Source: Desulfobacterales bacterium
GTDB lineage: Bacteria > Desulfobacterota > Desulfobacteria > Desulfobacterales > G963662235
Direction of reading: 5' to 3'
DNA: 64,000 bases
NCBI GenBank assembly: GCA_963662235.1
Contig: OY759308.1
Coordinates: forward strand, 2,043,545-2,107,544
The notes beneath the pieces were generated by a model. The model was not told where the DNA came from. It ran no database searches and saw only the letters and a program-made list of their open reading frames with translations. The position numbers and the translations under genes were made by a program. Below, in pieces: positions 10,358-50,809 of this stretch (its first letter is position 1; every line of letters starts with the position of its first letter).

Positions 10358-10374
10358 AGACCTTTGCACATAGC
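10358..10374 (+). mobile_element. Solo terminus of the AGACCTTTGCACATA repeat family (copy A)
   Basis: agacctttgcacatagc, 276 nt upstream of the giant CDS start; followed by a G-rich run at 10381-10400. Confidence 0.6.
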
Positions 10375-10439
10375 ATTAACGAGGTGGGGTGGGGGGGAAG
10401 AATAGTTAATTTAGATTAATTAAAAAAATATAAAAAATA

Positions 10440-11042
10440 TCACTCTATTATTATGGAATCTGTTATAAAAGCTGGTATTTCTTTCTTATTTAACATTTTC
10501 ATAGCTTTGCTACCATTCGCCTCGTCTCTTGTTTTAAAAAAACCTATTTTAACTTTATAATAGTTATCTATATGCTCAATATGGATAGGCTCTCTTATAC
10601 TCGCTACCCTTCTAATTTTTTCGCCATACGCCTCAGCATCGCGCATAGTACCACCTGCTAAAACTTGAATAGAAAAAACTTTTTTCTTTTTACTTGCAGG
10701 CATAGAAGTTTCTTCCTCTTTCGTTTTTATATCTTCTGCTGGATTGTTTTCATCAATTTTTTCTTCATCTTTTTTTTTTTCATCTTTTTTTTCTCTTAAT
10801 CGCTTCCACAAATCTCCGCTGTCTTCAACAAAACTAACACTACTTTGTTTATTTCTAATTTGGTTAATAACATTTTCTGTTGTTGGCTCTATAGAACTTT
10901 TTTTATCGATATGGACACTACTTCTGCCATATAAAAAACCTATGAAGAACATTGCAACAGCCACAATAAAATAGTTTAAAAAAATTTTTGTTCTATTTTT
11001 ATCGTCATCAGTCTTAATCTTTTTTTTTATTATTTTAGCCAT
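10440..11042 (-). CDS. SPOR domain membrane protein
   Basis: N-terminal TM (IFLNYFIVAVAMFFIGFLY), Lys/Glu-rich linker, C-terminal SPOR-like pattern FSIQVLAGG...AEAYGEKIRR...YYKVKIGFFKTRDEANGSKAMKML. Confidence 0.7.
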   Translation of the reverse strand: MAKIIKKKIKTDDDKNRTKIFLNYFIVAVAMFFIGFLYGRSSVHIDKKSSIEPTTENVINQIRNKQSSVSFVEDSGDLWKRLREKKDEKKKDEEKIDENNPAEDIKTKEEETSMPASKKKKVFSIQVLAGGTMRDAEAYGEKIRRVASIREPIHIEHIDNYYKVKIGFFKTRDEANGSKAMKMLNKKEIPAFITDSIIIE

Positions 11043-11054
11043 TTTATAAAAAAC

Positions 11055-12695
11055 CTACATATTTAGAGGAGTAGAAACCTTTAACATATTAAGTCCATTA
11101 CCAACTATAATCTTAACTGCTGATATAAGATACAACCTCGCTAAAGAGAGCTCTTTATCATCAGATATAACTTTGTGTTTATTATAATAAGAATGAAAAG
11201 CAGATGACAACTCTATTAAATAGAATGTTATATGATGAACTTCCATTTTTTCGGCTGAAGTTTTTAAAACTTCAGGATATTCAATCATACATTTTATTAA
11301 ATCGATCTCTTCTTGCTCTTTAAGAAGCTTTGAAAAATTGTCTACCTTTTCAATTTGGAGCTTCAAATTCTCTTCTTCTGCCTTTTTTAAAATATTAGAT
11401 ATCCTTGCATAAACGTATTGCACATAATAAACAGGATTTTCACTATTTTTCTTTTTAGCAAGCTCCATATCAAAATCTATCGTACTCTCATGATGACGAG
11501 ATAAAAACAGAAATCTTGTAGCATCAATACCAACTTCAAGAATTAAATCTTTTAAAGTGATAAAATCCCCTTTTCTTTTAGACATAGATACAGGTTTTTT
11601 ATTTTTAAAAAGATTAACAAGCTGTATAAGCAAAACTTTTAAATTCTCTTTTTTGTTAAAAATACTAACTGCAGCCTTCATTCTATCAATATAACCATGA
11701 TGGTCTGCACCCCAAATATTTATAACCTCTTCAAAACCTCTTTTAAACTTATTCCGATGATATACAATGTCTGAAAAAAAATAGGTTATCTCTCCATTGC
11801 TTCGCTTTATTACCCTATCTTTTTCATCGCCAAACTCTTGAGACTTAAACCAAGTTGCTCCATCTTTTTCATAGATAAGCTTTTTTTTACTAAGCTCTGC
11901 AATAGTATCCAAAGCTTCATTGCTATTAAATAAAGCATCTTCACTAAACCAATTATTAAAATCGACATTTAATAAGTTTAAAGTCTTGCTTATATCTTTT
12001 ATAATTATTGCCATAGATTCTTTAGCAAAAAACTTTACTGCTTCATCTTTATTACCATCAAAAGAGGGAAGCTTTTTTGCTATATCTATTATATAATCGC
12101 CCTTATAACAACCTTCGGGGAAATCTACCTTTTCACCTTCAAGCTCTTTTTTTCTTAAAAAAACTGAAAGACCAAGATTTTCAACTTGCAGACCTCTATC
12201 ATTTAAATAATATTCTTTATAAACATCGAACCCAAGATAATTTAAAAGATTTGATAAAACATCTCCAAAAACAGCTCCTCTACCATGTCCTATATGTAAA
12301 GGTCCTGTAGGATTGGCACTGACAAACTCTATCATTATTTTTTTAGAATTGCCTATGTTCTGTTTGCCATAGTTTTTTTCTTTTATAAGAATCTCTTTTA
12401 AAAAAGATTGGAAGAGTTCTTGCTTTATAAAAAAATTCAAAAAACCTGCGCCTGCTATCTCTATTTTAGAGAAAATATTATGCTTATCTTCAATATCCTC
12501 TTTAAGTATCGTAGCTATCTCTTTAGGATTTTTTTTAAGGAGAGGAGCAAGAACCATAGAAATATTACAGGAAAAATCTCCAAATTTTTTATTTTTGGGT
12601 TTTTCTACACTAAATTTTTTTAAATTCTGTAATATTTCTTTTTTAAAAAGGGAGGCAATAGAGTCATCAACTATTTTAATAATATCATTTTTCAT
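11055..12695 (-). CDS. argS: Arginine--tRNA ligase
   Basis: 546 aa; class-I HIGH motif (SANPTGPLHIGHGRG), MSKRKG, DALR-type C-terminal anticodon-binding region. Confidence 0.95.
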   Translation of the reverse strand: MKNDIIKIVDDSIASLFKKEILQNLKKFSVEKPKNKKFGDFSCNISMVLAPLLKKNPKEIATILKEDIEDKHNIFSKIEIAGAGFLNFFIKQELFQSFLKEILIKEKNYGKQNIGNSKKIMIEFVSANPTGPLHIGHGRGAVFGDVLSNLLNYLGFDVYKEYYLNDRGLQVENLGLSVFLRKKELEGEKVDFPEGCYKGDYIIDIAKKLPSFDGNKDEAVKFFAKESMAIIIKDISKTLNLLNVDFNNWFSEDALFNSNEALDTIAELSKKKLIYEKDGATWFKSQEFGDEKDRVIKRSNGEITYFFSDIVYHRNKFKRGFEEVINIWGADHHGYIDRMKAAVSIFNKKENLKVLLIQLVNLFKNKKPVSMSKRKGDFITLKDLILEVGIDATRFLFLSRHHESTIDFDMELAKKKNSENPVYYVQYVYARISNILKKAEEENLKLQIEKVDNFSKLLKEQEEIDLIKCMIEYPEVLKTSAEKMEVHHITFYLIELSSAFHSYYNKHKVISDDKELSLARLYLISAVKIIVGNGLNMLKVSTPLNM

Positions 12696-12713
12696 TTATA
12701 AACAAATATAGGT

Positions 12714-13154
12714 TTAATCATCGTCGTCGTTTTTGGAACTATTGATAGATAAAATCTTTTTAGGTATATCCGCTGTATCCATTTCATCTTCAAGAAGAAG
12801 AGAATCTTCAATATCATCTATTTTTTCTTCCTCTTCTACAATCTCTTTCTTTATAAAATCTAAATCATCAAGAAACAACTCTTTAGGTTCTTGTTCTTCC
12901 ACTTTACTTTTAACATACTTCATAACATTTTCAGCAATGACTTTAATAAACTCATAAACAGGGAAAAAGTTGTCTGTTCTTATAAACTCGATTAACGAAT
13001 TAATATCTTTTTGTTTTACTAATTTTTTTACCTCTTCAATATCATAAGACTCTCTACATACTAAAGAATAAGATTCTCTTTCAAGTTGTGAATACTCTTC
13101 AAGTAACAACTCTTTTTTATCTTTATTTAATTGAATAATAAACTTTTGCTTCAT
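12714..13154 (-). CDS. Hypothetical acidic protein
   Basis: 146-aa ORF in operon orientation with a strongly acidic C-terminus (..EEEEKIDDIEDSLLLEDEMD..NDDDD); no family recognised. Confidence 0.5.
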   Translation of the reverse strand: MKQKFIIQLNKDKKELLLEEYSQLERESYSLVCRESYDIEEVKKLVKQKDINSLIEFIRTDNFFPVYEFIKVIAENVMKYVKSKVEEQEPKELFLDDLDFIKKEIVEEEEKIDDIEDSLLLEDEMDTADIPKKILSINSSKNDDDD

Positions 13155-13201
13155 AATGAAAAAATTCCTATTTCCTATTAATTAAAAAGTTAACGCTTGT
13201 G

Positions 13202-13232
13202 AGACCTTTGCACATACTGTTTTTTGTGAAAA
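13202..13232 (+). mobile_element. Truncated copy (B) of the repeat family: left terminus plus ~15 bp of internal sequence
   Basis: agacctttgcacatactgttttttgtgaaaaa matches the left end of the full copies; no convincing right terminus. Confidence 0.5.
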
Positions 13233-13245
13233 ACACACAAGACTT

Positions 13246-14040
13246 TTAATATTTTATAACTTCATACTCTTTTTTTAAACTGTTTAGTTTGTCTTTAACA
13301 ACCCCTTCTAACTTCGAATACTTTATCTCTTCTGCAATAGTATCTCTAACTTCATCTAAACTCTTCTTATCCTCTTTCTTATCTTCAAGTTTTATTATGT
13401 GATAACCAAAGTTTGTTTCAACAAGCCCTGCTATTTCACCCACTTTCATCTTAAGAACTGCATCTTCAAACTCTTTTACCATAGAGCCTAAACCGAACCA
13501 ACCAAGTGAGCCACCTTGTTTACCAGATGGGCATATAGATTTTTCTTCAGCAACTTTACTGAATAGACTTTCATCTTTTTTTATTTCATCAAGATATTTT
13601 TCTGCATCTTTTTTTTGCTCTTTTGAGAATAAAATATGACTCGCCTTCATTTGAAGAGTTGGTTTATACTTTTCAAGATAAACATCTTTTATCTCTTTTT
13701 CTGAAACCTTAATATTCTCCTTTATATAATCTACATAAACTGTGACTAAGATATCTTTTTTTAAAAGGTCCATTTTATTTATGAACTCTTCCTTTTTATC
13801 CATACCTTCTTTACTTGCAGCTTTATAAAAGAGTTCTCTCTCTATAAGCTTATTAATTAAAACATCTCTTGAAATATTAGGTCTTCGGTCGTCAGGTATA
13901 GAATCTAAAACATTCTGTAAATAGTCTTCAGTTATTTTAAAATCATCCACCTCTGCCAAAACCTTGCTGTTTGCACGTGAATCAACATTTAAAGCACACA
14001 TAATTAACCCCACAATAAAAAAAACATATATTTTTCTCAT
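13246..14040 (-). CDS. Parvulin-type peptidyl-prolyl cis-trans isomerase (PpiC/PrsA-like), secreted
   Basis: Signal peptide; parvulin core ASHILF...CPSGKQGGSLGWFGLGSMVKEFEDA...ETNFGYHIIKLE. Confidence 0.85.
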   Translation of the reverse strand: MRKIYVFFIVGLIMCALNVDSRANSKVLAEVDDFKITEDYLQNVLDSIPDDRRPNISRDVLINKLIERELFYKAASKEGMDKKEEFINKMDLLKKDILVTVYVDYIKENIKVSEKEIKDVYLEKYKPTLQMKASHILFSKEQKKDAEKYLDEIKKDESLFSKVAEEKSICPSGKQGGSLGWFGLGSMVKEFEDAVLKMKVGEIAGLVETNFGYHIIKLEDKKEDKKSLDEVRDTIAEEIKYSKLEGVVKDKLNSLKKEYEVIKY

Positions 14041-14084
14041 AACGAATTTCCCTTAAATAATTTTTTTTAAAAGAAAAAAATAAG

Positions 14085-14102
14085 AAATCTCTTGCACATA
14101 GC
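14085..14102 (+). repeat. Degenerate terminus-like motif of the repeat family
   Basis: aaatctcttgcacatagc; the 12-nt core cttgcacatagc resembles the termini of copies A and E. Confidence 0.35.
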
Positions 14103-14130
14103 TACATAAAGAACAACATAAAAAAAATCG

Positions 14131-14290
14131 AGACCTTTGCACATAATGTTTTTTATGAAAAAACAGTGTTTTTTCCGTAAAACATTAACCTTTGATAATT
14201 TTACAAAAACCTCTAAAACCCTTATAAAGACTTACACTTTTCTTTGCTTTTGTTTTGGGCTTGACGTATTAATATACTGCTACACCACAA
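14131..14290 (+). mobile_element. Long-form copy (C) of the repeat family; right terminus missing
   Basis: The left terminus agacctttgcacataatg, the shared internal core and the ~75-bp extra module (acttacacttttctttgcttttgttttgggcttgacgtattaatatactgctacaccacaaaa) align with copy I at 37444-37636. Confidence 0.8.
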
Positions 14291-14295
14291 AAATC

Positions 14296-15975
14296 TTACA
14301 AACCGTACTTTTCATTTAAAAGCGTACGCAACATACTTCTGTATGATAGGACATTAGGCTCTAATTGCACAGCTTTTTTTAAACAAATAATAGCCTCTTT
14401 TTTCTTACCAAGACGCAAATAAATAGTAGATAAAATATTATAATAATAAGCGGTGTTGTAAGGTTTTAGTTCAATTAGTTTTTTAAAATAATGTAAAGAG
14501 TTTATATACATTTTTTTGTTAAAATAGATAACTCCAAGGTTGTTAAGAGAGTTTATATGATTAGGATCCATTAAAAGAACATTTTCATAACTTTTAATCG
14601 CTTTTTCAAAATTGTTAATATTATCAAATGCTACCCCTAAGTTATAATGGGCTAAAATATTATTTCTATTCCCTTTAATTGCACTTTTAAAATATTCAAT
14701 AGCCTTATTATACTTTTTATTCCTTAAAAAATAGAAGCCGAGATTGTTATAAACAGTATAAGTCTTAGGATTTACATCTAAAACTCGCCTAAAAAGTATA
14801 AGCTCATTTTGCCAATATTGTACTTGAAAAAAACTTATAACGGTAAAAAAGATAATAATGAAAAAAGATACTATTTTTAAAATTAAATCCTTTTTGTAAA
14901 ATTTTTTAACTACAGCTTCTCCCCCCCAAACTATTAAAACAAAAATACCTATTAATGGGATATAAGAGTATCTATCAGCCATTCCTTGTTCTCCAACCTT
15001 AACAAGACCAATAACAGGCAATAGAGTTCCAATATAAAACGACCAAGACACAAAAAGGCAAGGTGCTTTTTTTATATATTTAATTCCTAAATAAAAAGGC
15101 ATTAAAAAAAATATTGAACACAAAACAAGTTGCAAAATAGAAATGTTTTGAGGAGATAGGTAAAAAACGGTCAAATCGAAGGGAAAGATAGCTTTTTTTA
15201 TATAAAGAAAATAAGATAGAAGTGCATTCTTAAATCTAAATAATAATGAATAATACTTCAAAGAAGCAACAGCTCCAAAGTTTTTTTGTGCAATTATTGT
15301 TATTATAGAAGAGAAAATAGTTAGTAAAAAAAAAGGCAACTTTTCGTATATTAATTTAAAAGATATTTTTCTCTTAAGCGGATAGTAATCAAGTAATAAA
15401 AAAATAAAAGGCATTGTAACCAACATAGATTTGGACATAAGACTCAATATAAATGAGAAAAGCGATATAAAATATCTTTTTAAGCTATTTGTTTTCGCAT
15501 AGTCCAAATAATAGTATATACAAAGAAAACCAAAAAAAGCACTAAGCAGGTCTTTTCTACCAGATATCCACGCTACAGATTCTATATGCATAGGATGAAT
15601 TGCAAAAAGAATTGCTACTAAAAAAGAGTTATAAACAGAACCTGTAAGTTTGCAGAAAAGAAAAAAAAGTAAAAGAGAGTTTAAAATATGAAAGAAAATA
15701 TTTGTTATATGATAGCTATGAACGTTAAGCCCGCTAATTTGATAATCAAAAAGATATAAAAGCCAAGTTACAGGATGCCAATTTGCTGCATAAGTAGATT
15801 TAAAAGCCCAAGAGATTCCTTCTAAAGTAAAACCTTTTTTAATATTTTCTATATTGTCGTGTATATGGGAAAAATCGTCATAAACAAAATTGTAATTATA
15901 AACCTGAAAGTAGATAATAAACGTAAAAGCTACAATTAAAAAACTTAAAACTATTTTCTTATTTTGAATAGACAT
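14296..15975 (-). CDS. Polytopic membrane protein with C-terminal TPR repeats (PMT_2/TMTC-like GT-C glycosyltransferase family)
   Basis: 559 aa; many N-terminal TM helices with an FVYDDFSHIHDN motif near TM1; C-terminal TPR units (YNNLGFYFLRNKKYNKAIEYFKSAI, HYNLGVAFDNINNFEKAIKSYENVL ...). Confidence 0.6.
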   Translation of the reverse strand: MSIQNKKIVLSFLIVAFTFIIYFQVYNYNFVYDDFSHIHDNIENIKKGFTLEGISWAFKSTYAANWHPVTWLLYLFDYQISGLNVHSYHITNIFFHILNSLLLFFLFCKLTGSVYNSFLVAILFAIHPMHIESVAWISGRKDLLSAFFGFLCIYYYLDYAKTNSLKRYFISLFSFILSLMSKSMLVTMPFIFLLLDYYPLKRKISFKLIYEKLPFFLLTIFSSIITIIAQKNFGAVASLKYYSLLFRFKNALLSYFLYIKKAIFPFDLTVFYLSPQNISILQLVLCSIFFLMPFYLGIKYIKKAPCLFVSWSFYIGTLLPVIGLVKVGEQGMADRYSYIPLIGIFVLIVWGGEAVVKKFYKKDLILKIVSFFIIIFFTVISFFQVQYWQNELILFRRVLDVNPKTYTVYNNLGFYFLRNKKYNKAIEYFKSAIKGNRNNILAHYNLGVAFDNINNFEKAIKSYENVLLMDPNHINSLNNLGVIYFNKKMYINSLHYFKKLIELKPYNTAYYYNILSTIYLRLGKKKEAIICLKKAVQLEPNVLSYRSMLRTLLNEKYGL

Positions 15976-16052
15976 AAAATAAATTTATGCTCGTTTTGAC
16001 AGATTAACAATAGAATTAATTCAATAAAAAGTATAAAACATCTTCTTATCTT

Positions 16053-17112: not shown

Positions 17113-17115
17113 ATC

Positions 17116-18462: not shown

Positions 18463-18470
18463 TTTTTTAA

Positions 18471-19442: not shown

Positions 19443-19462
19443 ATTTATACTTCTTCAAAACG

Positions 19463-19478
19463 AGACCTTTACACATAA
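19463..19478 (+). mobile_element. Solo terminus (copy D) of the repeat family
   Basis: agacctttacacataa, 20 nt upstream of the fliH start codon. Confidence 0.55.
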
Positions 19479-19499
19479 ATAATATTTTGCAAAAAACCT

Positions 19500-20519: not shown

Positions 20520-20561
20520 TTTTTTTTACCATTGTTTAATGTTTATTATATTTTAAGACTA

Positions 20562-22361: not shown

Positions 22362-22476
22362 AAAAATTAACTTTTTGGTATCCTTTCCAATCAATTAATA
22401 AGTTGAAAGTTTAGCTCATAACTTTTTTTAAAACTTAAAAAACAGCTAAACAAAAAATAGTTCATTTCTAAACTTA

Positions 22477-22599
22477 AGACCTTGGCACATAGCTTAATTT
22501 TTTATAAGGTTTTTTTGAGGTTTTTGTAAAATTTTAAAAAAGCTAATATTTTACTCAAAACCACTATTTCCCCATAAAAAACATTATGTACAAAAGTCT
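22477..22599 (-). mobile_element. Full copy (E, 123 bp) of the repeat family, inverted relative to the other full copies, between fliE and fliF
   Basis: Termini agaccttggcacatagc ... cattatgtacaaaagtct. The internal sequence is the reverse complement of the core of copies F/I/K. Flanks are TAAACTTA / TAAAATTG (6/8 identical). Confidence 0.85.
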
Positions 22600-22898
22600 T
22601 AAAATTGCATACGATTAACTTCTTTATATGCATCTAAAAGTTTATTTCTAACTTGAGCAAAAAGTTTTAAAGTTACATCTGCTTCTTGCAAGTTTAACAT
22701 AGCTTCATGAATACCAAGTTCTCCACTTAAAACCTTTTCTGTAGACTCGTCACCAATAATCTGTCTTTCATTAACATTCTTTACTGCAACATCTAATCTT
22801 TCTGAAAAACTCGGAGACTCTAACGTCTTTGTCGATTTTAATGGGATACTATTTTTTACAGATGGTATAATATTGCTATTTGTATTTGTTATTTTCAT
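22599..22898 (-). CDS. fliE: Flagellar hook-basal body complex protein FliE
   Basis: 99 aa; C-terminal ...HEAMLNLQEADVTLKLFAQVRNKLLDAYKEVNRMQF; positioned after flgC. Confidence 0.85.
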   Translation of the reverse strand: MKITNTNSNIIPSVKNSIPLKSTKTLESPSFSERLDVAVKNVNERQIIGDESTEKVLSGELGIHEAMLNLQEADVTLKLFAQVRNKLLDAYKEVNRMQF

Positions 22899-22904
22899 AA
22901 TTTA

Positions 22905-25376: not shown

Positions 25377-25385
25377 AATTTTTTG

Positions 25386-25499
25386 AGACCTTTGCACATA
25401 ATATTTTTTAAGAAAAAATAGTGGTTTTTTTGTAAATATTAACTTTTGACAATTTTACAAAAACCTCTAAAACCCTTATAAAGCTATGTGCAAAGGTCT
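25386..25499 (+). mobile_element. Full copy (F, 114 bp) of the repeat family
   Basis: agacctttgcacataat...ctatgtgcaaaggtct with 15-nt perfect terminal inverted repeats. Internal TTGACA / TTTACA ... TATAAA hexamers. The outer end lies 9 nt from the activator ATG. Confidence 0.9.
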
Positions 25500-25520
25500 T
25501 TTTTATAATTATTCTATTTT

Positions 25521-31300: not shown

Positions 31301-31329
31301 AAACTTTTGCACATTATGTACAAAGGTAT
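31301..31329. mobile_element. Minimal (29 bp) form (G) of the repeat family: two termini abutting
   Basis: aaacttttgcacattatgtacaaaggtat is a near-palindrome equal to left terminus plus right terminus with no internal core; 18 nt upstream of the porG ATG. Confidence 0.6.
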
Positions 31330-34428: not shown

Positions 34429-34444
34429 ATTTTTTTAGTCGCCG

Positions 34445-34734
34445 TAGGGGCGGGGTTGCCCCGCCATTTCAATATTCTGCCATTTCCGTATAATTTGTTT
34501 TTTTATTGGGCACGGCACGCCGTGCCCCTACCTTGTTCACCATTTCAATATAATTTTCTTACCATTTTGATATAAATTGTTTTACCGTTGGGCTACACGC
34601 ATTTCCTGATGATAATTCCATATTGATTTGATTAAATACCATAAAGATACAAAATCTTGTAGAGACAGGTCGCGACCTGTCTCTACGGGAAAATATAATT
34701 TTCAACACAAGGGCGGGTTTGGTCTAGTCCCTAC
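34445..34734. repeat. Cluster of GC-rich hairpins / palindromes with GTAGGGG / CCCCTAC-type flanks in an AT-rich spacer
   Basis: Hairpins at 34449-34465 (7 bp) and 34508-34527 (GGGCACGG-CACG-CCGTGCCC); a perfect 28-nt palindrome GTAGAGACAGGTCGCGACCTGTCTCTAC at 34669-34696; a weaker GGGCGGG...GTCCCTAC at 34711-34734. The motif ccatttcaatat recurs after hairpins 1 and 2. Confidence 0.8.
34447..34467 (+). terminator. Candidate intrinsic terminator of glyQS (GC hairpin 1)
   Basis: GGCGGGG-TTG-CCCCGCC (34449-34465) lies 20 nt after the glyS stop, but the following tract (atttcaatatt) is only weakly U-rich. Confidence 0.4.
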
Positions 34735-34747
34735 GGTTATGATTGCG

Positions 34748-34765
34748 AGATCTTTGCACATAATG
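34748..34765 (+). mobile_element. Solo terminus (copy H) of the repeat family
   Basis: agatctttgcacataatg, 49 nt upstream of the DUF4143 ATPase start. This is the only copy whose inner side faces the adjacent gene. Confidence 0.55.
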
Positions 34766-34814
34766 TTATTGTTTTAGCCTTGCAAATTTAATTTAAGATG
34801 TTAAATATGCAAGG

Positions 34815-36453: not shown

Positions 36454-36459
36454 ATATAA

Positions 36460-36765: not shown

Positions 36766-36783
36766 TTCTCTTAAACCTTAAAA

Positions 36784-37317: not shown

Positions 37318-37443
37318 TATGTAGCCTTAAAACCTTGGAACTAAACTTTTTTTGATAGATAGAAGAAACCTATTATTATAAAGAGCCCTATTGTTTTTCT
37401 CTAAAATATATACAGATGATTATGACACTATCAGACATAATCA

Positions 37444-37636
37444 AGACCTTTGCACATAATATTTTTATGGAAAAATAATGTTTTTGAAAAAATATTAACT
37501 TTTGATATTTTTTTACCAAAACTTCTAAAACCCCTATAAAGACTTACGCTCTCTTTTGCTTTTATTTTGGGTTCGACGTATAAAAATACTACTTCACCAC
37601 AAAATAAAAACAAAATAGAGCTATGTGCAAAGGTCT
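37444..37636 (+). mobile_element. Archetypal long-form copy (I, 193 bp) of the repeat family with a perfect 8-bp flanking duplication
   Basis: Termini AGACCTTTGCACATA / TATGTGCAAAGGTCT (15/15 complementary). Flanked by CATAATCA at 37436-37443 and again at 37637-37644. Confidence 0.92.
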
Positions 37637-37672
37637 CATAATCATCTGCTATATTTAAATAAAGTGCAAAAA

Positions 37673-38104: not shown

Positions 38105-38358
38105 TATCTTTAAAACTCCTTTAAATTTTTTTATTTAAGAATATCGGGTTTCCATAAATAAGTTTAACAAAAAACTTTATATTAATAGTTCTGATAAAAA
38201 TTTAAAAAAACAAAACCATATATAAAGTTTTGATAGGTTATACGTAAAGAAGAAAAAAATCCTTCTTTTTTTTAGAAAAAAATTTTTAATTGTTTGAAAG
38301 CAAGGTTAAATTGCAACAATTAAGATGTTAAAAAAATTATTGAAAGCACTTAACTCAA

Positions 38359-38381
38359 TATGTATAGTGCAATTATACATA
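38359..38381 (+). promoter_or_regulatory. Inverted repeat (candidate operator/promoter) upstream of the antitoxin gene
   Basis: TATGTATA-gtgcaat-TATACATA, 20 nt upstream of the ATG; followed by the SD-like AAGGGGGGG. Confidence 0.45.
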
Positions 38382-38400
38382 AAAAAAAGGGGGGGCGTAT

Positions 38401-38643
38401 ATGAAAGCAACTATTGTTGATTTAAGATATAAAATGAATGATGTACTTAAAGCTTTAGATAGAAATGAACAAGTAACCGTTTTTTATCGGGGAAAAGCTA
38501 AAGGAACTTTAATTCCATTAGGGAAAAAATCCCAATTAAAAATTTCCGAACATCCTTTTTTTGGTATGTCGTTAAGTAGCAATGAAAAAACCGTACAGGA
38601 TGTGATGGACGATTTAAGGAGCTCAAGATACGATGATATTTGA
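38401..38643 (+). CDS. Type II antitoxin (Phd/YefM-like)
   Basis: 80 aa; MKATIVDLRYKMNDVLKALDRNEQVTVFYRGKAKGTLIP; overlaps the downstream PIN gene by 11 nt. Confidence 0.7.
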   Translation: MKATIVDLRYKMNDVLKALDRNEQVTVFYRGKAKGTLIPLGKKSQLKISEHPFFGMSLSSNEKTVQDVMDDLRSSRYDDI

Positions 38644-39010
38644 TACAGATATTTTCATATGGGCACAAAAGGGTAATGAAAAAGCTGCAAAAATGCTGGA
38701 AAGCGATGATGAAAGATTCCTTTCCGTTCAAACATATATGGAACTTTTGCAATGTGCTAAAAATAAACTCCAACATAAATATATAAAAGATTTTATATCT
38801 TCTTTTGGCTTTACTGTCTTGCCACTAACAGAAAATATCGGTCATCGTGCATCAATTTATGTTGAAGAATACACTCTATCTTCAAATCTTAGAGCTGGCG
38901 ATGCAATAATCGCAGCCACCACTGTTGAAAACAGTTTAACCCTTGCTTCAAGCAATACAAAGCATTTTAAGGCTATTAAAGAGCTTCGATTAAAAACCTT
39001 CAAACCATAA
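38633..39010 (+). CDS. PIN-domain toxin (VapC-like)
   Basis: 125 aa; MIFDTDIFIW (N-terminal acidic residues), ..YMELLQ.., RAGDAIIAATT, SSNTKHF. Confidence 0.8.
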   Translation: MIFDTDIFIWAQKGNEKAAKMLESDDERFLSVQTYMELLQCAKNKLQHKYIKDFISSFGFTVLPLTENIGHRASIYVEEYTLSSNLRAGDAIIAATTVENSLTLASSNTKHFKAIKELRLKTFKP

Positions 39011-39025
39011 ACTGGAATTTTAAAT

Positions 39026-40318: not shown

Positions 40319-40327
40319 TTTAATATT

Positions 40328-41230: not shown

Positions 41231-41283
41231 TTTTTTTCGCTCTATTTTTTAACAAACCGTAAACCATTTAAACGGTCTTTTCT

Positions 41284-41309
41284 CCCCCCTTCAAAGGGGG
41301 GCTGGGGGG
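41284..41309 (+). repeat. C6-loop-G6 hairpin plus G6 run (GC-element copy a)
   Basis: cccccc-ttcaaa-gggggg-ct-gggggg. Confidence 0.8.
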
Positions 41310-41322
41310 TAAAACTCTTTTG

Positions 41323-41442
41323 AGAGCTTTGCATATAATGTTTTTTTTTATGAAAAAAAATAGTAGTTTTTAATAAAATATCAATTTTTGATAATTTTAT
41401 AAAAGATTTAAAAAAACCCTATAAAGACTGAAGCTCTCTCTT
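41323..41442 (+). mobile_element. Left part of a long-form copy (J) of the repeat family, interrupted near the DUF559 gene 3' end
   Basis: agagctttgcatataatg..., shared core ...ccctataaagactgaagctctctctttc aligns with copy I as far as ~41440 and then diverges. Confidence 0.65.
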
Positions 41443-41443
41443 T

Positions 41444-41845
41444 CTATGTTGTTAATCTTTTAACAACATCTAATAAGTTACAATAAACACCTTCTAAATT
41501 ATTCATTACTTCACTATTCATATAACGAACTATTGTTAAACCATAATTTTCTAAATCTTTAGTTCGTTTTTGTTCATATTTTTCTAGCAAAGAATGTGAA
41601 TCGCCATCTAATTCAATAACTAAACCTAAACTGGCACAATAAAAATCTACAATATAATCTAATAATGGTTTTTGTCGTATAAATTTTAATCCTTTAAATT
41701 GCCTATTCCTTAAACATTCTAACCACAACTTATTTTCAACAGGGTTAGCTGATTTTCGGTTTTCTTGTGCTCTTTTAATTAAATCTTTACGATAAGGAAT
41801 AGCATTATGCGAATGCCGATGGTATAAAGATTTTTCTTTTTGCAT
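41444..41845 (-). CDS. DUF559 (Vsr-like endonuclease fold) domain protein
   Basis: 133 aa; ENKLWLECLRNRQFKGLKFIRQKPLLDYIVDFYCASLGLVIELDGDSH...RTKDLENYGLTIVRY matches the DUF559 pattern. Confidence 0.75.
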   Translation of the reverse strand: MQKEKSLYHRHSHNAIPYRKDLIKRAQENRKSANPVENKLWLECLRNRQFKGLKFIRQKPLLDYIVDFYCASLGLVIELDGDSHSLLEKYEQKRTKDLENYGLTIVRYMNSEVMNNLEGVYCNLLDVVKRLTT

Positions 41846-41894
41846 TTGTTATAAATTTTATTAATTTATAATTTTAAAATCTTTTAATTCTATT

Positions 41895-41936
41895 TTCGCC
41901 TTCGGCGAACCCCCTTAATCCCCCTTAAAAGGGGGA
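41895..41936 (-). repeat. GC-element copy b (small TTCGCC hairpin + C5 run + C5-loop-G5 hairpin), inverted relative to copy a
   Basis: ttcgccttcggcgaacccccttaatcccccttaaaaggggga. Its reverse complement is near-identical to 58083-58126. Confidence 0.85.
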
Positions 41937-42009
41937 GATAAGATAAAAAATCCACCCATTAAAAATGGCAAATTAAGATACAAACTATCAAATAAAAATA
42001 TTTTAAAAA

Positions 42010-42028
42010 CTTATGTGCAAAAACTCTT
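42010..42028 (+). mobile_element. Right-terminus-like motif of the repeat family
   Basis: cttatgtgcaaaaactct resembles the right terminus ctatgtgcaaaggtct and may pair with the left terminus at 41323. Confidence 0.4.
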
Positions 42029-42031
42029 AGT

Positions 42032-42664: not shown

Positions 42665-42677
42665 ATTAAAAAAAAAA

Positions 42678-43439: not shown

Positions 43440-43629
43440 AACTATTATAAACCTTAATATTTAAATTGAGTTTCCTTTTTGTCTAATACTAAAAAATTAC
43501 TCTAAATTTTTTAGAAAAACTTTTCTTTAAAAACAATTAAAAAATCCTTTACAATAAAAGTGTTTGCACAATACTTAATTTTTTATACAAAAAATTCATT
43601 TTTAGTACAAAAATAAATAAAAAAAACTT

Positions 43630-45177
43630 ATGAAACACAAAACCTATATTATCCTTTTTTTCTTAATCTTTTTTACTCTTAAAAATATAACGCCTGTATA
43701 TTCTGGAGTTTCACAAGAAGAATTAATTTTTTTACCAATTAAAACAGAAACTTTAGATAAATTTGAAAAAGAATTTTATGAGGCTGTTTTTATAGAATCC
43801 CTTGCTAAAAAAAACACTGTTTATTCTGGACCCAAGGTGTTGGAAAAAATAGATAAGATAGGTAGTTCTAAACAAATATGTACAAGTAAAGACTGTTTAA
43901 GACAAGTCGCATTAGAGTTTAATGGATCACTTATAGGACAAGCTAAAATAGAAAAAGATAACCAAAATTTGTATACGATATCGTTTATAGTTAAAGATAT
44001 TTTTGAAGACAAAACTATATACAGTAAAACCTCCTTTTGTGATAATTGTAATAAGGCAGATATCTCACAAAAAATAAAAACACTATTTTTAAAAGAAGAG
44101 GAAAACGTTGATGCAGGAGTGTTAAATATAGAAACTGAACCTCAAAAAGCTATAATTACAATCTTTTCTAAAAACAAAGAAGTAAAAACAGAAATTTCAC
44201 CTTCCCTAATAAAGCTTAGACCTGACAATTATAAAGTTATTATAAAAAAAAACAAATACATCCCTTATGAGCAAGAAGTCCTTATCGAAAAAGGTAAAAT
44301 GAAAAATATAACTATTGAGCTAAAACAAATATTAGGGCGAATTTTAATAATTTCCGACGAAGACGGCGCTGATGTTTTTATAAATGGCGAAAAAAAAGGC
44401 ACAACACCTTATAAAACAAAAGAATTACCAGCAGGTGAATACGAAATAAAAGCACAAACTAAAAACAAATATGGCTATGAAAAAGTATTATTAGAAAAAA
44501 ATGGCGAAACCCAAAAGATACAAATTAAGCTAAAATCTAAAAAAGAAAAAATAATAAAAAAAGAGAGAAAGGATAGTGATTTTAATTTTAATTTTGGGAT
44601 AAATGGCAGACTTGATTTTTCTTATGATTTTGTAAAAACTGGGGATGAAAGAGAGCTTATAACACCATTTGGTACAGATTTAAGAATGTTTGTAGGACAA
44701 AAAAATGGAATCAATATCGGAATAGGTTACTTCATCGGAAGAGCTACTTACGACAAAATAAATACCAATCTTAGTTCTAATGAGTATGTTAGTGAAGGCG
44801 ATATAGATAAAAAAGAGATTAATTTTTATCTTGGCAAACATATCCAAAATAAAAACAATAGTTTTTATTGGTACCTATCGTACACAAATGAAGAACTTAC
44901 AGGCAAATACAAAATTGAAAACTCTAATATCAGAGATGAATATGAAACTGAAGTCAAAGGAGCAGGCATAGGAATAGGTTTTTGGACAGTATTGAATCAA
45001 AAAAGTTGTTTAGGTCAAAGTCTCTCTTACGGAGTAGATCTTAAATATTTAAAATATGAATATGAAAAATTTAAATACAAAAGCAAAAATTCATCAGAAG
45101 AACACAATATAGATATTAGTAATGAAGATGAACAAAATATTTTTGTATTAAGTATATTTACAGGAATTGCATTTTAA
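43630..45177 (+). CDS. Outer-membrane protein: FlgO/TolB-N-like N-domain + two PEGA domains + C-terminal beta-barrel-like region
   Basis: Signal peptide; PEGA-like segments (NIETEPQKAIITIF..., DGADVFINGEKKGTTPYKTKELPAGEYEIKA..GYE); C-terminal alternating aromatic pattern ending ...FTGIAF. Confidence 0.6.
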   Translation: MKHKTYIILFFLIFFTLKNITPVYSGVSQEELIFLPIKTETLDKFEKEFYEAVFIESLAKKNTVYSGPKVLEKIDKIGSSKQICTSKDCLRQVALEFNGSLIGQAKIEKDNQNLYTISFIVKDIFEDKTIYSKTSFCDNCNKADISQKIKTLFLKEEENVDAGVLNIETEPQKAIITIFSKNKEVKTEISPSLIKLRPDNYKVIIKKNKYIPYEQEVLIEKGKMKNITIELKQILGRILIISDEDGADVFINGEKKGTTPYKTKELPAGEYEIKAQTKNKYGYEKVLLEKNGETQKIQIKLKSKKEKIIKKERKDSDFNFNFGINGRLDFSYDFVKTGDERELITPFGTDLRMFVGQKNGINIGIGYFIGRATYDKINTNLSSNEYVSEGDIDKKEINFYLGKHIQNKNNSFYWYLSYTNEELTGKYKIENSNIRDEYETEVKGAGIGIGFWTVLNQKSCLGQSLSYGVDLKYLKYEYEKFKYKSKNSSEEHNIDISNEDEQNIFVLSIFTGIAF

Positions 45178-45180
45178 ACA

Positions 45181-46212
45181 ATGAAAATACTAAAAAGATT
45201 AAAAATATTATTTATTGTTTTTTTAATGTTTAATTTTAGCTGTGCTAAACAAACTATTTTTAAAAATAAGTGCAATGTAACTCAAAAAAAACCTAAATGG
45301 GCAAACAGCACTAATATGATAGAAATTCCTGGCTATTATGTCGGTGTTGGATATGCCGAAAATAAAAAATTTGAAGAGGCAAAATCAAAAGCTATAAGGA
45401 ACCTTTCAGAAAAAATATCTGCGGATATAAAAAGTGAAGGGGAAATATCGGAAGAACAAAAGTTAAATAGTTCTTTTAAAAAAGAAGCAAAATTTAAAAT
45501 AAATATAAGCTCCAATATTAAGCTTTATGATTTAAAACAAGATTCACAATGGATAGATGAAAACTGCAATGTTTGGGTAAGATTTAAAATAGAAAAAAAC
45601 ATTGCTCACAATATATTAAAATTTCAAGAAGCTGAAGATTTATATAAAATCGCAAAAGAGTCAAAAAATGGTTTAGAGACAAGAATAAGCAGCATTAAAA
45701 AAGCTTTAAATATTATTGAAACAATAGATTTTTCAACTCTTAGAACAAATAATAAAAAAAAATTTTACATAACGATTTATAGGAATCTAAAAGAAGATTT
45801 AGAGAAAATAATACAGGGAAGAGAAGTTGTATATTTTGTAAAATCACCTAATGAATCATTCAATAACTTATCAGAAGCTTTAATAGCTAAACTCATAAAC
45901 GATAATAAAGGTGGTTTATACGAAAAAAAAAACAACTGCGAAAAAATTGAAACTTGTTTTTTAATTGCAAGAGAAAATCTGGCAAAAAAAATGGTTATAG
46001 TTAAGATAGATTCTAAGATAAAGGATGACGGTATGCTTTGTATGGGCATTCTAAATATAGACATATATCCATACGATGTTAAAAGCGAAAAAATATTAAA
46101 AAAACCTTTTAATATAAATCGCAAACTTTTTTCTTATAACAAAAACTCTTTTAACTGGGAAAATACAATTAAAGAAGAGTTAACAAAAGAAGATGTTTTA
46201 TACACTTATTAA
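45181..46212 (+). CDS. LPP20/FlgP-like putative lipoprotein
   Basis: Signal sequence ending ..FNFSC; YYVGVGYAENKKFEEAKSKAIRNLSEKISADIKSEG resembles the LPP20 family; starts 3 nt after the upstream stop. Confidence 0.45.
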   Translation: MKILKRLKILFIVFLMFNFSCAKQTIFKNKCNVTQKKPKWANSTNMIEIPGYYVGVGYAENKKFEEAKSKAIRNLSEKISADIKSEGEISEEQKLNSSFKKEAKFKINISSNIKLYDLKQDSQWIDENCNVWVRFKIEKNIAHNILKFQEAEDLYKIAKESKNGLETRISSIKKALNIIETIDFSTLRTNNKKKFYITIYRNLKEDLEKIIQGREVVYFVKSPNESFNNLSEALIAKLINDNKGGLYEKKNNCEKIETCFLIARENLAKKMVIVKIDSKIKDDGMLCMGILNIDIYPYDVKSEKILKKPFNINRKLFSYNKNSFNWENTIKEELTKEDVLYTY

Positions 46213-46214
46213 AA

Positions 46215-46742
46215 ATGAAAAAAATAATATTTATAATAGCCATTTTTGCTTTAAGCAATTCATCCTGTGACAGCGGTTCATCAGCTGAAGATATAGCGCA
46301 AAATAACCCTGAAATTGGAACAACTAACAGCACTTATGCAACTGCTCTTGATAATTCGAATCTTACTTTTTCGTCAACTTCAGGGAATAATGCCAATTGG
46401 TGCACAACAACATCTCAATATTACGCAGGAGGAAGCTCATTAAGAAGTGGTTTAATTGGAAACTCTCAAACAAGCTGTATCCAAACAACAATTCCAAGAG
46501 CAGGAACTTTTAGCTTTTATTGGAAAGTCTCTTCCGAAAACTCTCGTGATTATTTGAAATTTTATTATAACAATTCTGTTCAAAATACTATTTCAGGAAC
46601 AACAAGTTGGGCACAAAAAACATATAATTATACGGGTTCTTATGCCGCCACATTAAAATGGTGTTATATTAAAGATTCTTCAATATCTCAAGGGAGTGAT
46701 GCTGGCTGGATTGATGATGTTCAGTTTACTGCTTCTAATTAA
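46215..46742 (+). CDS. Small secreted/lipo-protein with a jelly-roll (CUB/MAM-like) domain pattern
   Basis: Signal sequence ending ..SNSSC; ...GTFSFYWKVSSENSRDYLKFYYNN...WAQKTYNY..ATLKWCYIKDSSISQGSDAGWIDDVQF. Confidence 0.4.
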   Translation: MKKIIFIIAIFALSNSSCDSGSSAEDIAQNNPEIGTTNSTYATALDNSNLTFSSTSGNNANWCTTTSQYYAGGSSLRSGLIGNSQTSCIQTTIPRAGTFSFYWKVSSENSRDYLKFYYNNSVQNTISGTTSWAQKTYNYTGSYAATLKWCYIKDSSISQGSDAGWIDDVQFTASN

Positions 46743-46750
46743 ATAAGTTT

Positions 46751-47635: not shown

Positions 47636-47649
47636 AAGAAAAATATACT

Positions 47650-48162
47650 TTACTGTTTTTTATAAGATTTTAAAAATCTTATACATCTTTTAAGATTAGG
47701 CTTACTTAAAGCCACATCTCCATACAAAAATAAAACGCCATAAATACTATCCAATTTATCATCTATATTGCGACCTGTTTTTGACCAATAAAAATTACAC
47801 ATACTATTTGGGAAAGCCTCACTATTTATTGCTGGGAAAACACAATTGGGCGATATGATAGAAGAAAGTTCTTCAATCGTTGGCAATCGCCATTTTGCAT
47901 GCGACAATATCTTTTTTAATTCGTACCAATCCAACATAATAGGTTCACCTATGCATTTACCATTCTTATACTCTTGTCCAAAAGAACATTTTTGCCACAT
48001 AACATTAAGTTGCATATCACTCACAGTCCCATCTTGATTATCGATAAAACGTGTTTTCATCTCTTCTGCATTTTGTATTTTGCACCTTTTTAATTGATCT
48101 GAATAAGAAAAGTCATACAAAAATAAAATTACAGTTATTATTAGTAATGTTCTTTTAATCAT
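47650..48162 (-). CDS. DUF1566 (Lcl C-terminal-like) domain protein, secreted
   Basis: Signal peptide; ...NQDGTVSDMQLNVMWQKC...WRLPTIEELSSI matches the DUF1566 pattern. Confidence 0.6.
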   Translation of the reverse strand: MIKRTLLIITVILFLYDFSYSDQLKRCKIQNAEEMKTRFIDNQDGTVSDMQLNVMWQKCSFGQEYKNGKCIGEPIMLDWYELKKILSHAKWRLPTIEELSSIISPNCVFPAINSEAFPNSMCNFYWSKTGRNIDDKLDSIYGVLFLYGDVALSKPNLKRCIRFLKSYKKQ

Positions 48163-48179
48163 AATTGCTTACAATGGAA

Positions 48180-49604: not shown

Positions 49605-49625
49605 TAATAATAAGAAATGATTAAG

Positions 49626-49746
49626 AGACCTTTACACATACACATAGTTTTTTTATGAAAAAAGAGTGGTTTTGAAAAAATATTAACTTTTAGTAATTTT
49701 ACAAAAATCTCTAAAAACTCTAATATAGAGCCATATGTAAAGGTCT
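49626..49746 (+). mobile_element. Full copy (K, 121 bp) of the repeat family
   Basis: agacctttacacata...catatgtaaaggtct; flanks TGATTAAG (49618-49625) / TGATTAAA (49747-49754), 7/8 identical; outer end 21 nt from the sbcB ATG. Confidence 0.9.
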
Positions 49747-49830
49747 TGATTAAATTAAGAGCTTTTTTACTACAAAGAAAGTAAAAAAAGCAGTAAGTTA
49801 AAAAAAAATTTAATATAAAAAAATTGAATT

Positions 49831-50226
49831 TTATCTTTTTGAGAATTGGAATTTTGCTCTTGCTTTTCTTTGACCATATTTTTTTCTCTCTTTAACTCTA
49901 TCGTCTCTTTTAATTAAACCAGCTTTTTTAAGAGGAGAGCGTAAATTTTCGTCAAATTCAATAAGAGCTTTTGCTATACCAAGACTTACAGCATTTGCTT
50001 GTCCAATGATACCGCCTCCGAATGTAGATACATTAACATCAACTTTATTGATATTTTCTGTTATACTAAGAGGAGTTGTAATAATTTTTTGCATAGTGAT
50101 AGTTGGAAAATATTCTTTAATATCTTTTTTGTTAACAGTAATTTTTCCTACGCCACTACCAATCCAAGTTTTTGCAACAGCACTTTTTCTCTTACCTGTT
50201 GCATAAAATGTGTTTTTTTTTGCCAT
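49831..50226 (-). CDS. rpsI: 30S ribosomal protein S9
   Basis: 131 aa ending ...RKARAKFQFSKR. Confidence 0.95.
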   Translation of the reverse strand: MAKKNTFYATGKRKSAVAKTWIGSGVGKITVNKKDIKEYFPTITMQKIITTPLSITENINKVDVNVSTFGGGIIGQANAVSLGIAKALIEFDENLRSPLKKAGLIKRDDRVKERKKYGQRKARAKFQFSKR

Positions 50227-50266
50227 TATAAATAAGTATCTCCAAAAAAATTCTTTATACTAAATT

Positions 50267-50707
50267 TTAATTTATTGTTATTAATTCTGGGTTTTGTGGT
50301 TGATGTGGATGCTCTTCACCAACATAAACTTTTAATTTTTTATTTAATTTTCTACCAAGCGTGTTTTTAGGTAACATTCCTTGAACAGCAAAATATATCA
50401 AACTTTCAGGGCTTTTTGCATGAAGTTTTTCGGCTGTAATCTCTTTAAGTCCACCCATATAGCCACTATGTCTATAATAGATTTTATTCTTCCACTTTCT
50501 GCCTGTAAGTTTTATTTTATCTGCATTGATAACTACTATTGAATCGCCTGTGTCATTATGACTTGTATATTCTACTTTATGCTTGCCGAGTATCATTTTT
50601 GCTATAAAACTTGCAAGCCTACCTAAAACAAGCCCATCTGCATCTATCAAATACCAATTGTTTGGTACTTCTTCTCTTTTTTTACTGATTGTAAATTTTG
50701 TAAACAT
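50267..50707 (-). CDS. rplM: 50S ribosomal protein L13
   Basis: ...WYLIDADGLVLGRLASFIAKMILGKHK.... The ATG at 50707 is preferred; the track start at 50728 is a TTG. Confidence 0.95.
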   Translation of the reverse strand: MFTKFTISKKREEVPNNWYLIDADGLVLGRLASFIAKMILGKHKVEYTSHNDTGDSIVVINADKIKLTGRKWKNKIYYRHSGYMGGLKEITAEKLHAKSPESLIYFAVQGMLPKNTLGRKLNKKLKVYVGEEHPHQPQNPELITIN

Positions 50708-50736
50708 AATTAAATATTTAAACTCCAACTTATATG

Positions 50737-50809
50737 AGACCTTTGCACATAATGTTTTTTATGAAAAAATAGTGGGTTTTTTGTGAAAAAATATTATATG
50801 CAAAGATCT
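50737..50809 (+). mobile_element. Short-form copy (L, 73 bp) of the repeat family
   Basis: agacctttgcacataatgttttttatgaaaaaatagtggg...tatatgcaaagatct; flanks CTTATATG / CTTATTTT (6/8); 29 nt upstream of the rplM ATG. Confidence 0.85.

Follow-up and report, generated by a model that had tools for sequence, protein, structure and literature searches.

Bacterial MITEs whose GAGACCTTTGCA ends are of IS5 type have been described before, the closest being BrickBuilt and MITEPgRS of Porphyromonas gingivalis and ATR (AT-rich repeat) of Neisseria meningitidis, which are tied to ISPg1/ISPg9 and ISNme1 (PMC4596501). The published IS5-family ends begin GAGACC (ISNme1 GAGACCTTTGCAAAA, ISPg1 GAGACCATTGCA, BrickBuilt MITE GAGACCTTTGCA), and the target duplications of ISPg elements are 2-9 bp long (PMC4596501).

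We analysed a 64,000-nt stretch of DNA (the window) from a Desulfobacterales bacterium, in which an earlier note had recognised a MITE-like repeat family from the letters alone. Like BrickBuilt, MITEPgRS and ATR, this family is short, AT-rich, non-coding and intergenic, has copies in the tens and short variable target duplications at sites filled or empty by strain, is assigned to a parent through its terminal repeat only, and is identical to them over the first 12 nt of its ends. Unlike them, it has unrelated internal sequence without an internal minisatellite, is locally much denser (about one copy per 4-5 kb sampled), resides in an uncultured host of ~30% GC whose FliF is closest to that of Desulfobacteraceae (46% identity), and has a putative parent insertion sequence, none being co-resident in the ~95 kb examined.

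Correia (Neisseria), RUP (Streptococcus pneumoniae) and ERIC (enterobacteria), to which the family had been likened, resemble it in style as small intergenic inverted-repeat elements with co-transcribed hairpins, but not through any sequence relationship. Correia and RUP duplicate TA, RUP being mobilised by IS630-Spn1, and their ends and parent families differ, whereas the duplications found here are varied and 5-6 nt long. Unlike REP/REPIN sequences, which are 20-40-nt palindromes without target duplication that go with a RAYT IS200-like gene, the copies here measure 73-195 nt and have target duplications, and no RAYT (IS200-like) gene was found in the window.

A dense family of intergenic repeats with common termini

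The motif AGACCTTTGCACATA at no more than 2 mismatches matched 16 places in the window on both strands, all of them intergenic, compared with 0.24 on average, and never more than 3, in shuffled sequence. Alignment and an nhmmer profile, which defined membership in the window, revealed a shared core of ~100 nt, extended in a long class (193 nt) by a ~75-nt hairpin module, indicating that the proposed family and its size classes are real. Copies measure 73-195 nt, or 284 nt with a nested module, and contain no ORF. We identified ~17 copies or remnants across ~75 kb. Within the window, the stretches at 1-10 kb and 51-64 kb yielded no additional copies. Two further copies lie in the 10 kb beyond it in the sister strain (ENA ERZ21862600 contig_2, 97-99% identical to the window), so the family extends past the window. 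The features of the window are as follows, the ranges in brackets being those confirmed by nhmmer and alignment.

10357..10372, + strand: solo terminus of right-end type, GAGACCTTTGCACATAGC, an exact motif match ~270 nt upstream of a giant repeat-protein gene (giant ORF start near 10,111)
13201..13245, + strand: truncated copy, left terminus and ~30 nt of core, aligning to the family left end and running up to the stop codon of gene 13246-14040
14085..14101, + strand: degenerate right-end-type terminus AAATCTCTTGCACATAGC, read from the sequence, weak and below profile length, 30 nt from copy F
14130..14290, + strand: long-class copy F, left terminus, core and hairpin module (14131-14290, E = 3.5e-43), its right terminus missing at the junction with the stop codon of gene 14296-15975; identical in the sister strain
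19462..19495, + strand: remnant in the fliG-fliH gap, from sister-strain comparison and alignment
22476..22600, - strand: full copy E (123 + 2 nt) in the fliE-fliF gap, inverted relative to most copies (22599-22487, inverted); flanking 6-mers AAACTT and AAAATT match at 5/6 positions
25385..25500, + strand: full short-class copy A, 116 nt including terminal bases (25386-25491), 10 nt upstream of the ATG of a sigma-54 response regulator
31301..31329, no strand: 29-nt palindrome in the divergent por/glyQ gap, from motif match and sequence reading
34570..34586, no strand: empty site ATATAAATTGTTTTACC, where the sister strain has copy I
34747..34775, + strand: solo left-end-type terminus upstream of a DUF4143 ATPase gene, conserved in the sister strain
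37443..37637, + strand: full long-class copy B, 193 + 2 nt (37444-37636, E = 6e-44), with perfect flanking repeat ATAATC, or CATAATCA with the terminal base taken as flank
38169..38186, no strand: empty site AAAAAACTTTATATTAAT, where the sister strain has copy H
41322..41443, + strand: copy G, reaching from the left terminus through the core into the beginning of the hairpin module (41323-41446, E = 6.9e-21), breaking off at the stop codon of a DUF559 gene
42013..42028, - strand: possible diverged terminus TATGTGCAAAAACTCT, inner 10 nt only
49625..49747, + strand: full copy C, 121 + 2 nt (49626-49733), between rpsI and an exonuclease gene, with perfect flanking repeat GATTAA
50736..50810, + strand: mini copy D, 73 + 2 nt (50737-50827), just upstream of rplM

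All copies lie between ORFs, as the earlier note had stated, the copy at 22477-22599 overlapping the end of the fliE stop codon by one or two bases. Some are inside operons (fliE-fliF, fliG-fliH), contexts are unrelated, and the spacing to the downstream start codon ranges from 9 to 127 nt. The copy at 22477-22599 is indeed inverted, but the picture of a single inverted copy was incomplete, because re-scoring by left- or right-end type (by eye, with sister-strain-only copies counted) gave an orientation of ~10:5; the bias relative to genes is not significant.

The full terminus is a 15-16-nt inverted repeat, GAGACCTTTGCACATA, which is perfect in copies A and B. The terminal motif first reported was correct but too short, the true end being one base longer (R-AGACC..., usually GAGACC). 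In predicted folds the ends pair with each other, and the RNA folds of the copies are very stable (z = -4 to -9): copy B is predicted to fold into a long hairpin in which the hairpin module is nested (z = -8.8), and copy D reaches z = -8.0. The stems are AT-rich and formed simply by pairing of the inverted ends.

Target duplications, strain differences and decay

Perfect direct repeats of at least 5 nt flank seven of the nine full copies, compared with 1% of random flank pairs (P ~4e-13), and these repeats are varied and 5-6 nt long (ATAATC, GATTAA, ACTTT, AAATT). Comparison of occupied and empty orthologous intergenic regions, as the earlier note had proposed, showed that presence or absence differs at four sites between the window and the sister strain, with exact element boundaries at every polymorphic site. 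Copies A (25386-25499) and D (50737-50809) are absent from the sister strain; at the copy A site the window is 122 nt longer (116 + 6), and the empty site reads GCATAA-TTTTCT-AATTATTC. Two long-class copies of 195 nt are present only in the sister strain, copy I (inverted, 96% identical to copy B) at 34570..34586 with AAATT on both sides, and copy H at 38169..38186 with ACTTT on both sides. The corresponding empty sites in the window each hold a single copy of the repeat, and the difference of 200 nt is accounted for without mismatch as 195 + 5 nt. The fliE-fliF gap of a relative with 72% FliF identity is also empty (46 nt), and no motif was found in a more distant relative (51% FliF identity, 61% GC). 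Terminal inverted repeats, flanking direct repeats, presence/absence differences and matching empty sites bear out the non-autonomous, MITE-like character first proposed. Taken together with the many copies, their mobility, their short length and the lack of a transposase gene, these are among the properties by which MITEs are defined.

Copies also decay by deletion. The fliG-fliH gap of the sister strain is 50 nt longer than that of the window, the difference being a left terminus plus core; the terminus at 19463, first taken as solo, is a remnant, but in origin an internal-deletion derivative of the longer sister-strain copy. Several other class assignments changed on closer reading. The 29-nt palindrome at 31301-31329, a weak hairpin also present in the sister strain, is not a minimal form of the element but two diverged termini placed end to end. 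The mini copy at 50737-50809 belongs to the family, yet is not an ordinary full copy, as it has left-end-type sequence at both ends. The right terminus proposed at 42010-42028 matches over its inner 10 nt (TATGTGCAAA) and not over the remainder, which makes it weak, and its tie to copy G is unproven. Copy J of the sister strain has a GC-rich module adjoining a true terminus.

Terminal relationship to the IS5 family

The copies very probably constitute a non-autonomous DNA transposon mobilised by an IS5-family transposase encoded elsewhere. The first 12 nt of GAGACCTTTGCACATA are the published IS5-family ends (12/12 against both ISNme1 and BrickBuilt), and the match to the left end of IS5-family insertion sequences from several lineages extends to 15/15 terminal bases. 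Multi-copy elements that interrupt Cloacimonadota assemblies at contig ends carry this 15-mer as their left end, and so do complete 1320-1370-bp Cloacimonadota insertion sequences from metagenome bins, whose transposase scored 140.7 bits against the NCBIfam IS5-family model NF033581 (cut-off 140). Such insertion sequences from Cloacimonadota and anaerobes that occur with them (L046 2858-4177 and L054 6-1375, for example) share 14-15 nt of left end with the MITE, (A)AGACCTTTGCACATA/C, and, as in the MITE, have a TTGACAA(A)TTT motif ~50-60 nt inward. Unlike the MITE, they are autonomous, 1.3 kb long and encode a 346-352-aa DUF772 + DDE_Tnp_1 transposase; only ~10 nt of their right end match the MITE (AGACCTTTGC), and their hosts belong to other phyla. 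Similarity beyond the 15-16-nt end is marginal, extending over the first 60-75 nt (nhmmer E = 0.017-0.4; subterminal shuffle z = 2.5-4.8, in low-complexity sequence). No clear target duplication was found on the three insertion-sequence copies with both flanks (L046, L064, L066), which are possibly old or chimeric.

In the window, tblastn found no DDE transposase, in agreement with the earlier note, and no transposase of IS5 type was detected in ~95 kb of the species' DNA (window and sister strain), so a parent element in this genome is putative. The 2.13-Mb and 1.60-Mb contigs of the species carried none of the 120 best homologues of the Cloacimonadota transposase. The suggested search for a full-length insertion sequence with the same termini thus yielded a left end in Cloacimonadota and none in the ~95 kb of this species. 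An exact-pattern scan for the terminus with its subterminal sequence gave no match in species-representative genomes and three in JGI metagenomes, all unrelated. Among viral contigs, two matches were ends of the IS5-family insertion sequences already seen in the genome scan, the others being unrelated; plasmid sequences gave no match to the family, and a literature search for the 15-mer found none.

We infer an IS5-family transposase that acts in trans and is present in the genome. It would recognise both ends of an element built from an AT-rich non-coding core of ~100 nt between 16-nt terminal inverted repeats (GAGACCTTTGCACATA), cut the element out or copy it, and insert it into AT-rich intergenic spacers with duplication of a 5-6 bp target; assigning the variable terminal base to the flank would make this duplication read as 7-8 bp. 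Copies would then decay through truncation and internal deletion between short repeats, leaving the apparently solo termini.

Mobilisation by a transposase of another family that makes 8-bp duplications (for example, ISL3, IS6 or IS256), with the shared terminus convergent, seems improbable. It would account for the perfect 8-bp repeat of copy B and the 7/8 match of copy C that appear when the variable base next to AGACC is taken as flank, and the IS5-type gene was not found in this species in either the ~95 kb or the best 120 homologues. Canonical E. coli IS5 makes 4-bp duplications. However, IS5-family ends begin GAGACC (PMC4596501), so the variable base is part of the element, and the two clean empty sites then fit 195 + 5 nt; an ISL3 or IS6 parent, considered from the apparent 8-bp duplication, was dropped on these grounds. 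The identity of 15/15 terminal bases with IS5-family insertion sequences of several lineages also argues against convergence.

Other readings of the sites and biological meaning

We also considered, at a similarly low level of confidence, whether the element excises by cut-and-paste, leaving a footprint, and reinserts repeatedly at the same spots near start codons. The idea of a footprint relates to the D-less allele of the sister strain, which is not a simple empty site but keeps both flanking repeats with AA between them; a third allele of this site, sought through RplM, is not on record. The idea of a return relates to three further observations: in the relative with 72% FliF identity the same sigma-54 regulator gene is preceded, at a distance of 10 nt, by a terminus-like motif (3 mismatches), a 99% identical strain is empty at that site, and the repeats flanking D differ between strains identically on both sides. 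If true, this would be a MITE with reversible, site-selective insertion and a possible switch on neighbouring genes such as the flagellar regulator and rplM.

It is very improbable that the copies are fixed functional sites, such as an operator palindrome, a message-stabilising or processing RNA hairpin or a REP-like sequence. Although the copies are all intergenic, some within operons, with very stable RNA folds, and the terminus-like motif of the 72%-FliF relative lies upstream of the same gene, the spacing to the downstream start codon is variable, the two strains, though 97-99% identical, differ at four sites that show flanking duplications, and the stems are AT-rich inverted ends. Promoter- and terminator-like signals are not in excess, with 67 sigma-70 promoters found versus 69.7 expected and seven intrinsic terminators versus 5.6, neither consistently placed in the elements, and Rfam gave no match at gathering score in the whole window. 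A sigma-54 promoter was rejected by eye, since the motif contains TTGCA but no correctly spaced TGGCAC and lies on the wrong strand relative to the genes.

Least probable is spread by recombination, segmental duplication or homologous exchange of diverged alleles: imported alleles might explain why the repeats beside copies A and D diverge from the sister strain beyond the 1-3% background, but element boundaries are exact at all polymorphic sites, short target duplications are the signature of transposition, and copies occur in unrelated contexts and both orientations.

The family is dense and recently active, and conceptually not new; the general understanding of MITEs is unchanged by it. It is a clean, well-documented example from an uncultured and little-known low-GC lineage (genome ~2.1 Mb), in which insertion and loss are ongoing between near-identical strains, partly inside flagellar and ribosomal-protein gene clusters. 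Short-read assemblies of the organism break because contigs end inside copies, and the copies are usable as strain-typing markers. The common terminus, which ties the family to an IS5 group distributed over anaerobic-digester phyla, hints that the parent insertion sequence may have spread between phyla.

A single repeat family and its exact ends

When AGACCTTTGCACATA was searched in the 64-kb window with at most 2 mismatches, 16 sites were found, compared with a mean of 0.24 and a maximum of 3 in dinucleotide-preserving shuffles, and these positions matched the motif sites reported in the earlier note. Sequence reading, copy alignment and a profile scan all identified one family, which has a 15-16-nt end and a core, AT-rich and about 100 nt long; a long class carries an additional segment of about 75 nt with its own hairpin. 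The family profile, built from nine copies, detected seven substantial copies in the window, and none at 1-10 kb, which is occupied by a giant repeat-protein gene, or at 51-64 kb. All copies lie between ORFs in a mostly minus-strand gene array (argS, fliE-F-G-H-I, flgBC, a sigma-54 response regulator gene, glyQS and rplM-rpsI, among others), and over the roughly 75 kb sampled a copy or remnant occurs about every 4-5 kb. Identity among copies ranged from 77% to 96%, so that young and old copies coexist in the family. Orientation was about 10:5, by our own count of left-end versus right-end sequence types.

The base directly outside AGACC was always a purine, and the base outside GGTCT was almost always a pyrimidine. 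When these outer bases were taken as flank, copy B (37444-37636) showed a perfect 8-bp repeat, and most other copies mismatched exactly there. When they were assigned to the element (GAGACC...GGTCTC), perfect 5- or 6-bp repeats flanked six copies, two clean empty sites fitted without mismatch as 195 + 5 nt, and copy A fitted as 116 + 6 nt. Since the ends of IS5-family elements as published start with GAGACC (PMC4596501, Table 2), we counted the outer base within the element, and took GAGACCTTTGCACATA as the MITE end and 5-6 bp as the length of the target duplication.

Filled and empty sites between strains

The host has a GC content of about 30%, and its FliF shares at most 46-48% identity with named Desulfobacteraceae proteins. 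For comparison we used a sister strain (ENA ERZ21862600 contig_2, 1.6 Mb) whose DNA is 97-99% identical to the window; three loci read from it (L006, L068 and L069) span window 10.6-60.5 kb plus about 10 kb beyond. The second comparison was L002, a 5-kb contig of a relative (ENA ERZ23491059) with 72% FliF identity.

Flanking repeats were examined in nine full copies, five in the window and four present only in the sister strain, by taking the longest exact repeat common to the left and right flanks with an offset of 0-1 nt allowed. A repeat of at least 5 nt was found in seven of the nine, against 1% of random flank pairs from the window (binomial P ~4e-13). Moreover, the comparison of occupied and empty orthologous gaps that the earlier note had proposed revealed filled/empty differences between the window and the sister strain at four sites.

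Copies that differ between the window and the sister strain
Copy A: 25386-25499, 10 nt upstream of the regulator ATG; absent from the sister strain, the window being exactly 122 nt longer
Copy D: 50737-50809, close upstream of rplM; missing in the sister strain
Copy H: long class, in the sister strain; window 38169-38186 reads AAAAAACTTTATATT; filled allele +200 nt, with ACTTT on both sides
Copy I: long class, inverted, in the sister strain; window 34570-34586 reads ATATAAATTGTTTT; filled allele +200 nt, with AAATT on both sides

The same comparison yielded a deeper empty site in the relative with 72% FliF identity, whose fliE-fliF gap is 46 nt, compared with 204 nt including copy E (22477-22599, inverted) in the window. 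Confinement of the motif to the window, which the earlier note had held would speak against a mobile element, was not observed: copies J and K, both full, lie in the 10 kb of sister-strain DNA past the window, and the family therefore extends beyond it. That the family is currently active is notable.

Decay was also observed. At the fliG-fliH gap the sister strain carries 50 nt more, continuing into the family core, and the window allele has lost these 50 nt between two TATTTT repeats; the 'solo' terminus at 19463 in this gap is thus a remnant.

Some sites showed a more complex history. The sister allele lacking copy D keeps both flanking repeats, with AA in place of the 75-nt element, and both repeats start with C in the sister strain and with T in the window. 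The site is not virgin: rather than simply empty, it resembles the footprint left by an excision, or else a spot where insertion followed a separate course. Each of the two hexamers flanking copy A differs, at the same position, from the single hexamer of the sister strain. The L002 contig begins 33 nt inside an end-like motif with 3 mismatches, 10 nt upstream of the same regulator gene, as a repeat there would cause; the chance of such a motif in a 5-kb sequence is about 13% (25/200 shuffles). Taken together, these oddities are compatible with insertion having recurred at these sites. In both this organism and the relative, short-read contigs start or stop a few nt inside MITE ends (L001 at copy F, 14131-14290; L002 at the regulator gene), indicating that the family fragments assemblies.

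The link to IS5-family insertion sequences

No transposase was detected by tblastn in the window or the sister-strain loci read. We then scanned one genome per species with the end, extended by a single base on either side. Among the matches listed, a large group lay 35-55 nt from contig ends in Cloacimonadota bins and had subterminal sequence in common; such clustering near contig ends is the pattern of a multi-copy insertion sequence in short-read assemblies. One of these contigs encodes the beginning of a DUF772-domain transposase. Through transposase homologues, complete elements were identified at two loci, L046 (2858-4177, 1320 bp) and L054 (6-1375, 1370 bp), whose left end is AGACCTTTGCACATA/C, whose right end matches over about 10 nt and whose transposase has 346-352 aa (348 aa in L054). 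The catalytic part of this transposase scored 140.7 bits against the NCBIfam IS5-family model NF033581 (cut-off 140), and its nearest annotated plasmid relatives, at 31-37% identity, are labelled IS5-family.

In the literature, GAGACCTTTGCA is the end of the IS5-family element ISNme1, close variants end ISPg1/ISPg9, the same sequence is given as the end of the MITEs BrickBuilt and MITEPgRS, and the Neisseria ATR element is proposed to derive from ISNme1 (PMC4596501). Because the insertion-sequence ends and, independently, the literature share the MITE end sequence, the link to the IS5 family through that sequence is well supported. Past the end, similarity between the MITEs and the insertion sequences amounted to marginal matches. 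None of the best 120 transposase homologues, as candidates for a parent element, lay on contigs of this species. No target duplication was visible on the insertion-sequence copies read, which are possibly old or chimeric.

A Correia, RUP, ERIC or REP element was ruled out by differing ends and duplications. The window family works like the IS5-type MITEs of Porphyromonas and Neisseria and, by its ends, belongs with them. The earlier note's description and its non-autonomous, MITE-like reading were essentially right, given the flanking repeats, the filled and empty sites and the lack of a detected transposase. IS5-type bacterial MITEs have already been described. What is new in this family is the internal sequence; the host belongs to a little-known lineage, and the local density is notable.

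Neighbouring features and possible effects on the cell

The window begins with a single minus-strand ORF of at least 3370 aa (1-10111), open at the left edge. It contains about 25 tandem 270-bp (90-aa) units, 75-90% identical in DNA, with motifs including PKLQITG and GL.LD..TG.I.GTP, and its product looks like a giant surface protein of Ig-like repeats. A second repeat family, GC-rich within the AT-rich genome, reads TTTTCGCCTTCGGCGAACCCCCTTAATCCCCCTTAAAAGGGGGAGATAAG.

Copies of the GC-rich repeat
41892-41945, window
58021-58126, window, inverted
about 12365-12420, sister-strain locus L069, reverse complement

One copy adjoins a DUF559 gene and another is nested in sister-strain MITE copy J; G-runs at 10380-10400 and 41270-41310 may be kin of these repeats. 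The DUF559 gene (41444-41845, minus; very-short-patch-repair-like endonuclease fold, Pfam E = 6e-30) is flanked by truncated MITE copy G (41323-41442) and by the GC-rich module with a terminus-like motif, an arrangement that could represent a composite or captured gene.

Perfect GC-rich hairpins (34430-34745; e.g. GTAGAGACAGGTCGCGACCTGTCTCTAC and GGGCACGGCACGCCGTGCCC) form an array in which they alternate with recurring CCATTTCAATAT(A/T) motifs; the array is situated downstream of glyS and upstream of a DUF4143 ATPase gene. In the sister strain this array is longer and differs, and the ATPase gene survives only as a remnant. A 3.25-kb segment (43492-46744) with three plus-strand genes of 515, 343 and 175 aa, whose products have signal-peptide or lipoprotein-like N-termini, is precisely missing in the sister strain, which has a 3-nt junction in its place. 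A small toxin-antitoxin-like pair (~38300-39020; an 80-aa ORF and a 125-aa PIN-domain protein) accounts for about 710 nt inserted in the window compared with the sister strain. Past the BatD gene, window 60535-64000 and L069 are not alignable: the window encodes a 719-aa repeat-rich, Ser/Asn-rich protein resembling an adhesin or toxin C-terminal region, and in its place the sister strain carries genes for VWA/TPR, PBP1 and Rnf.

As for the MITEs themselves, promoter-like and terminator-like matches were not in excess, no Rfam match was obtained, and no sign of cargo was found. Their predicted folds were very stable (z = -4 to -9), and in these models the stability is a simple product of the inverted ends and a palindromic module. 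The distance from MITE to next start codon was 9 to 127 nt. Transcription of copies within operons would give long AT-rich hairpins, with a possible effect on message processing.
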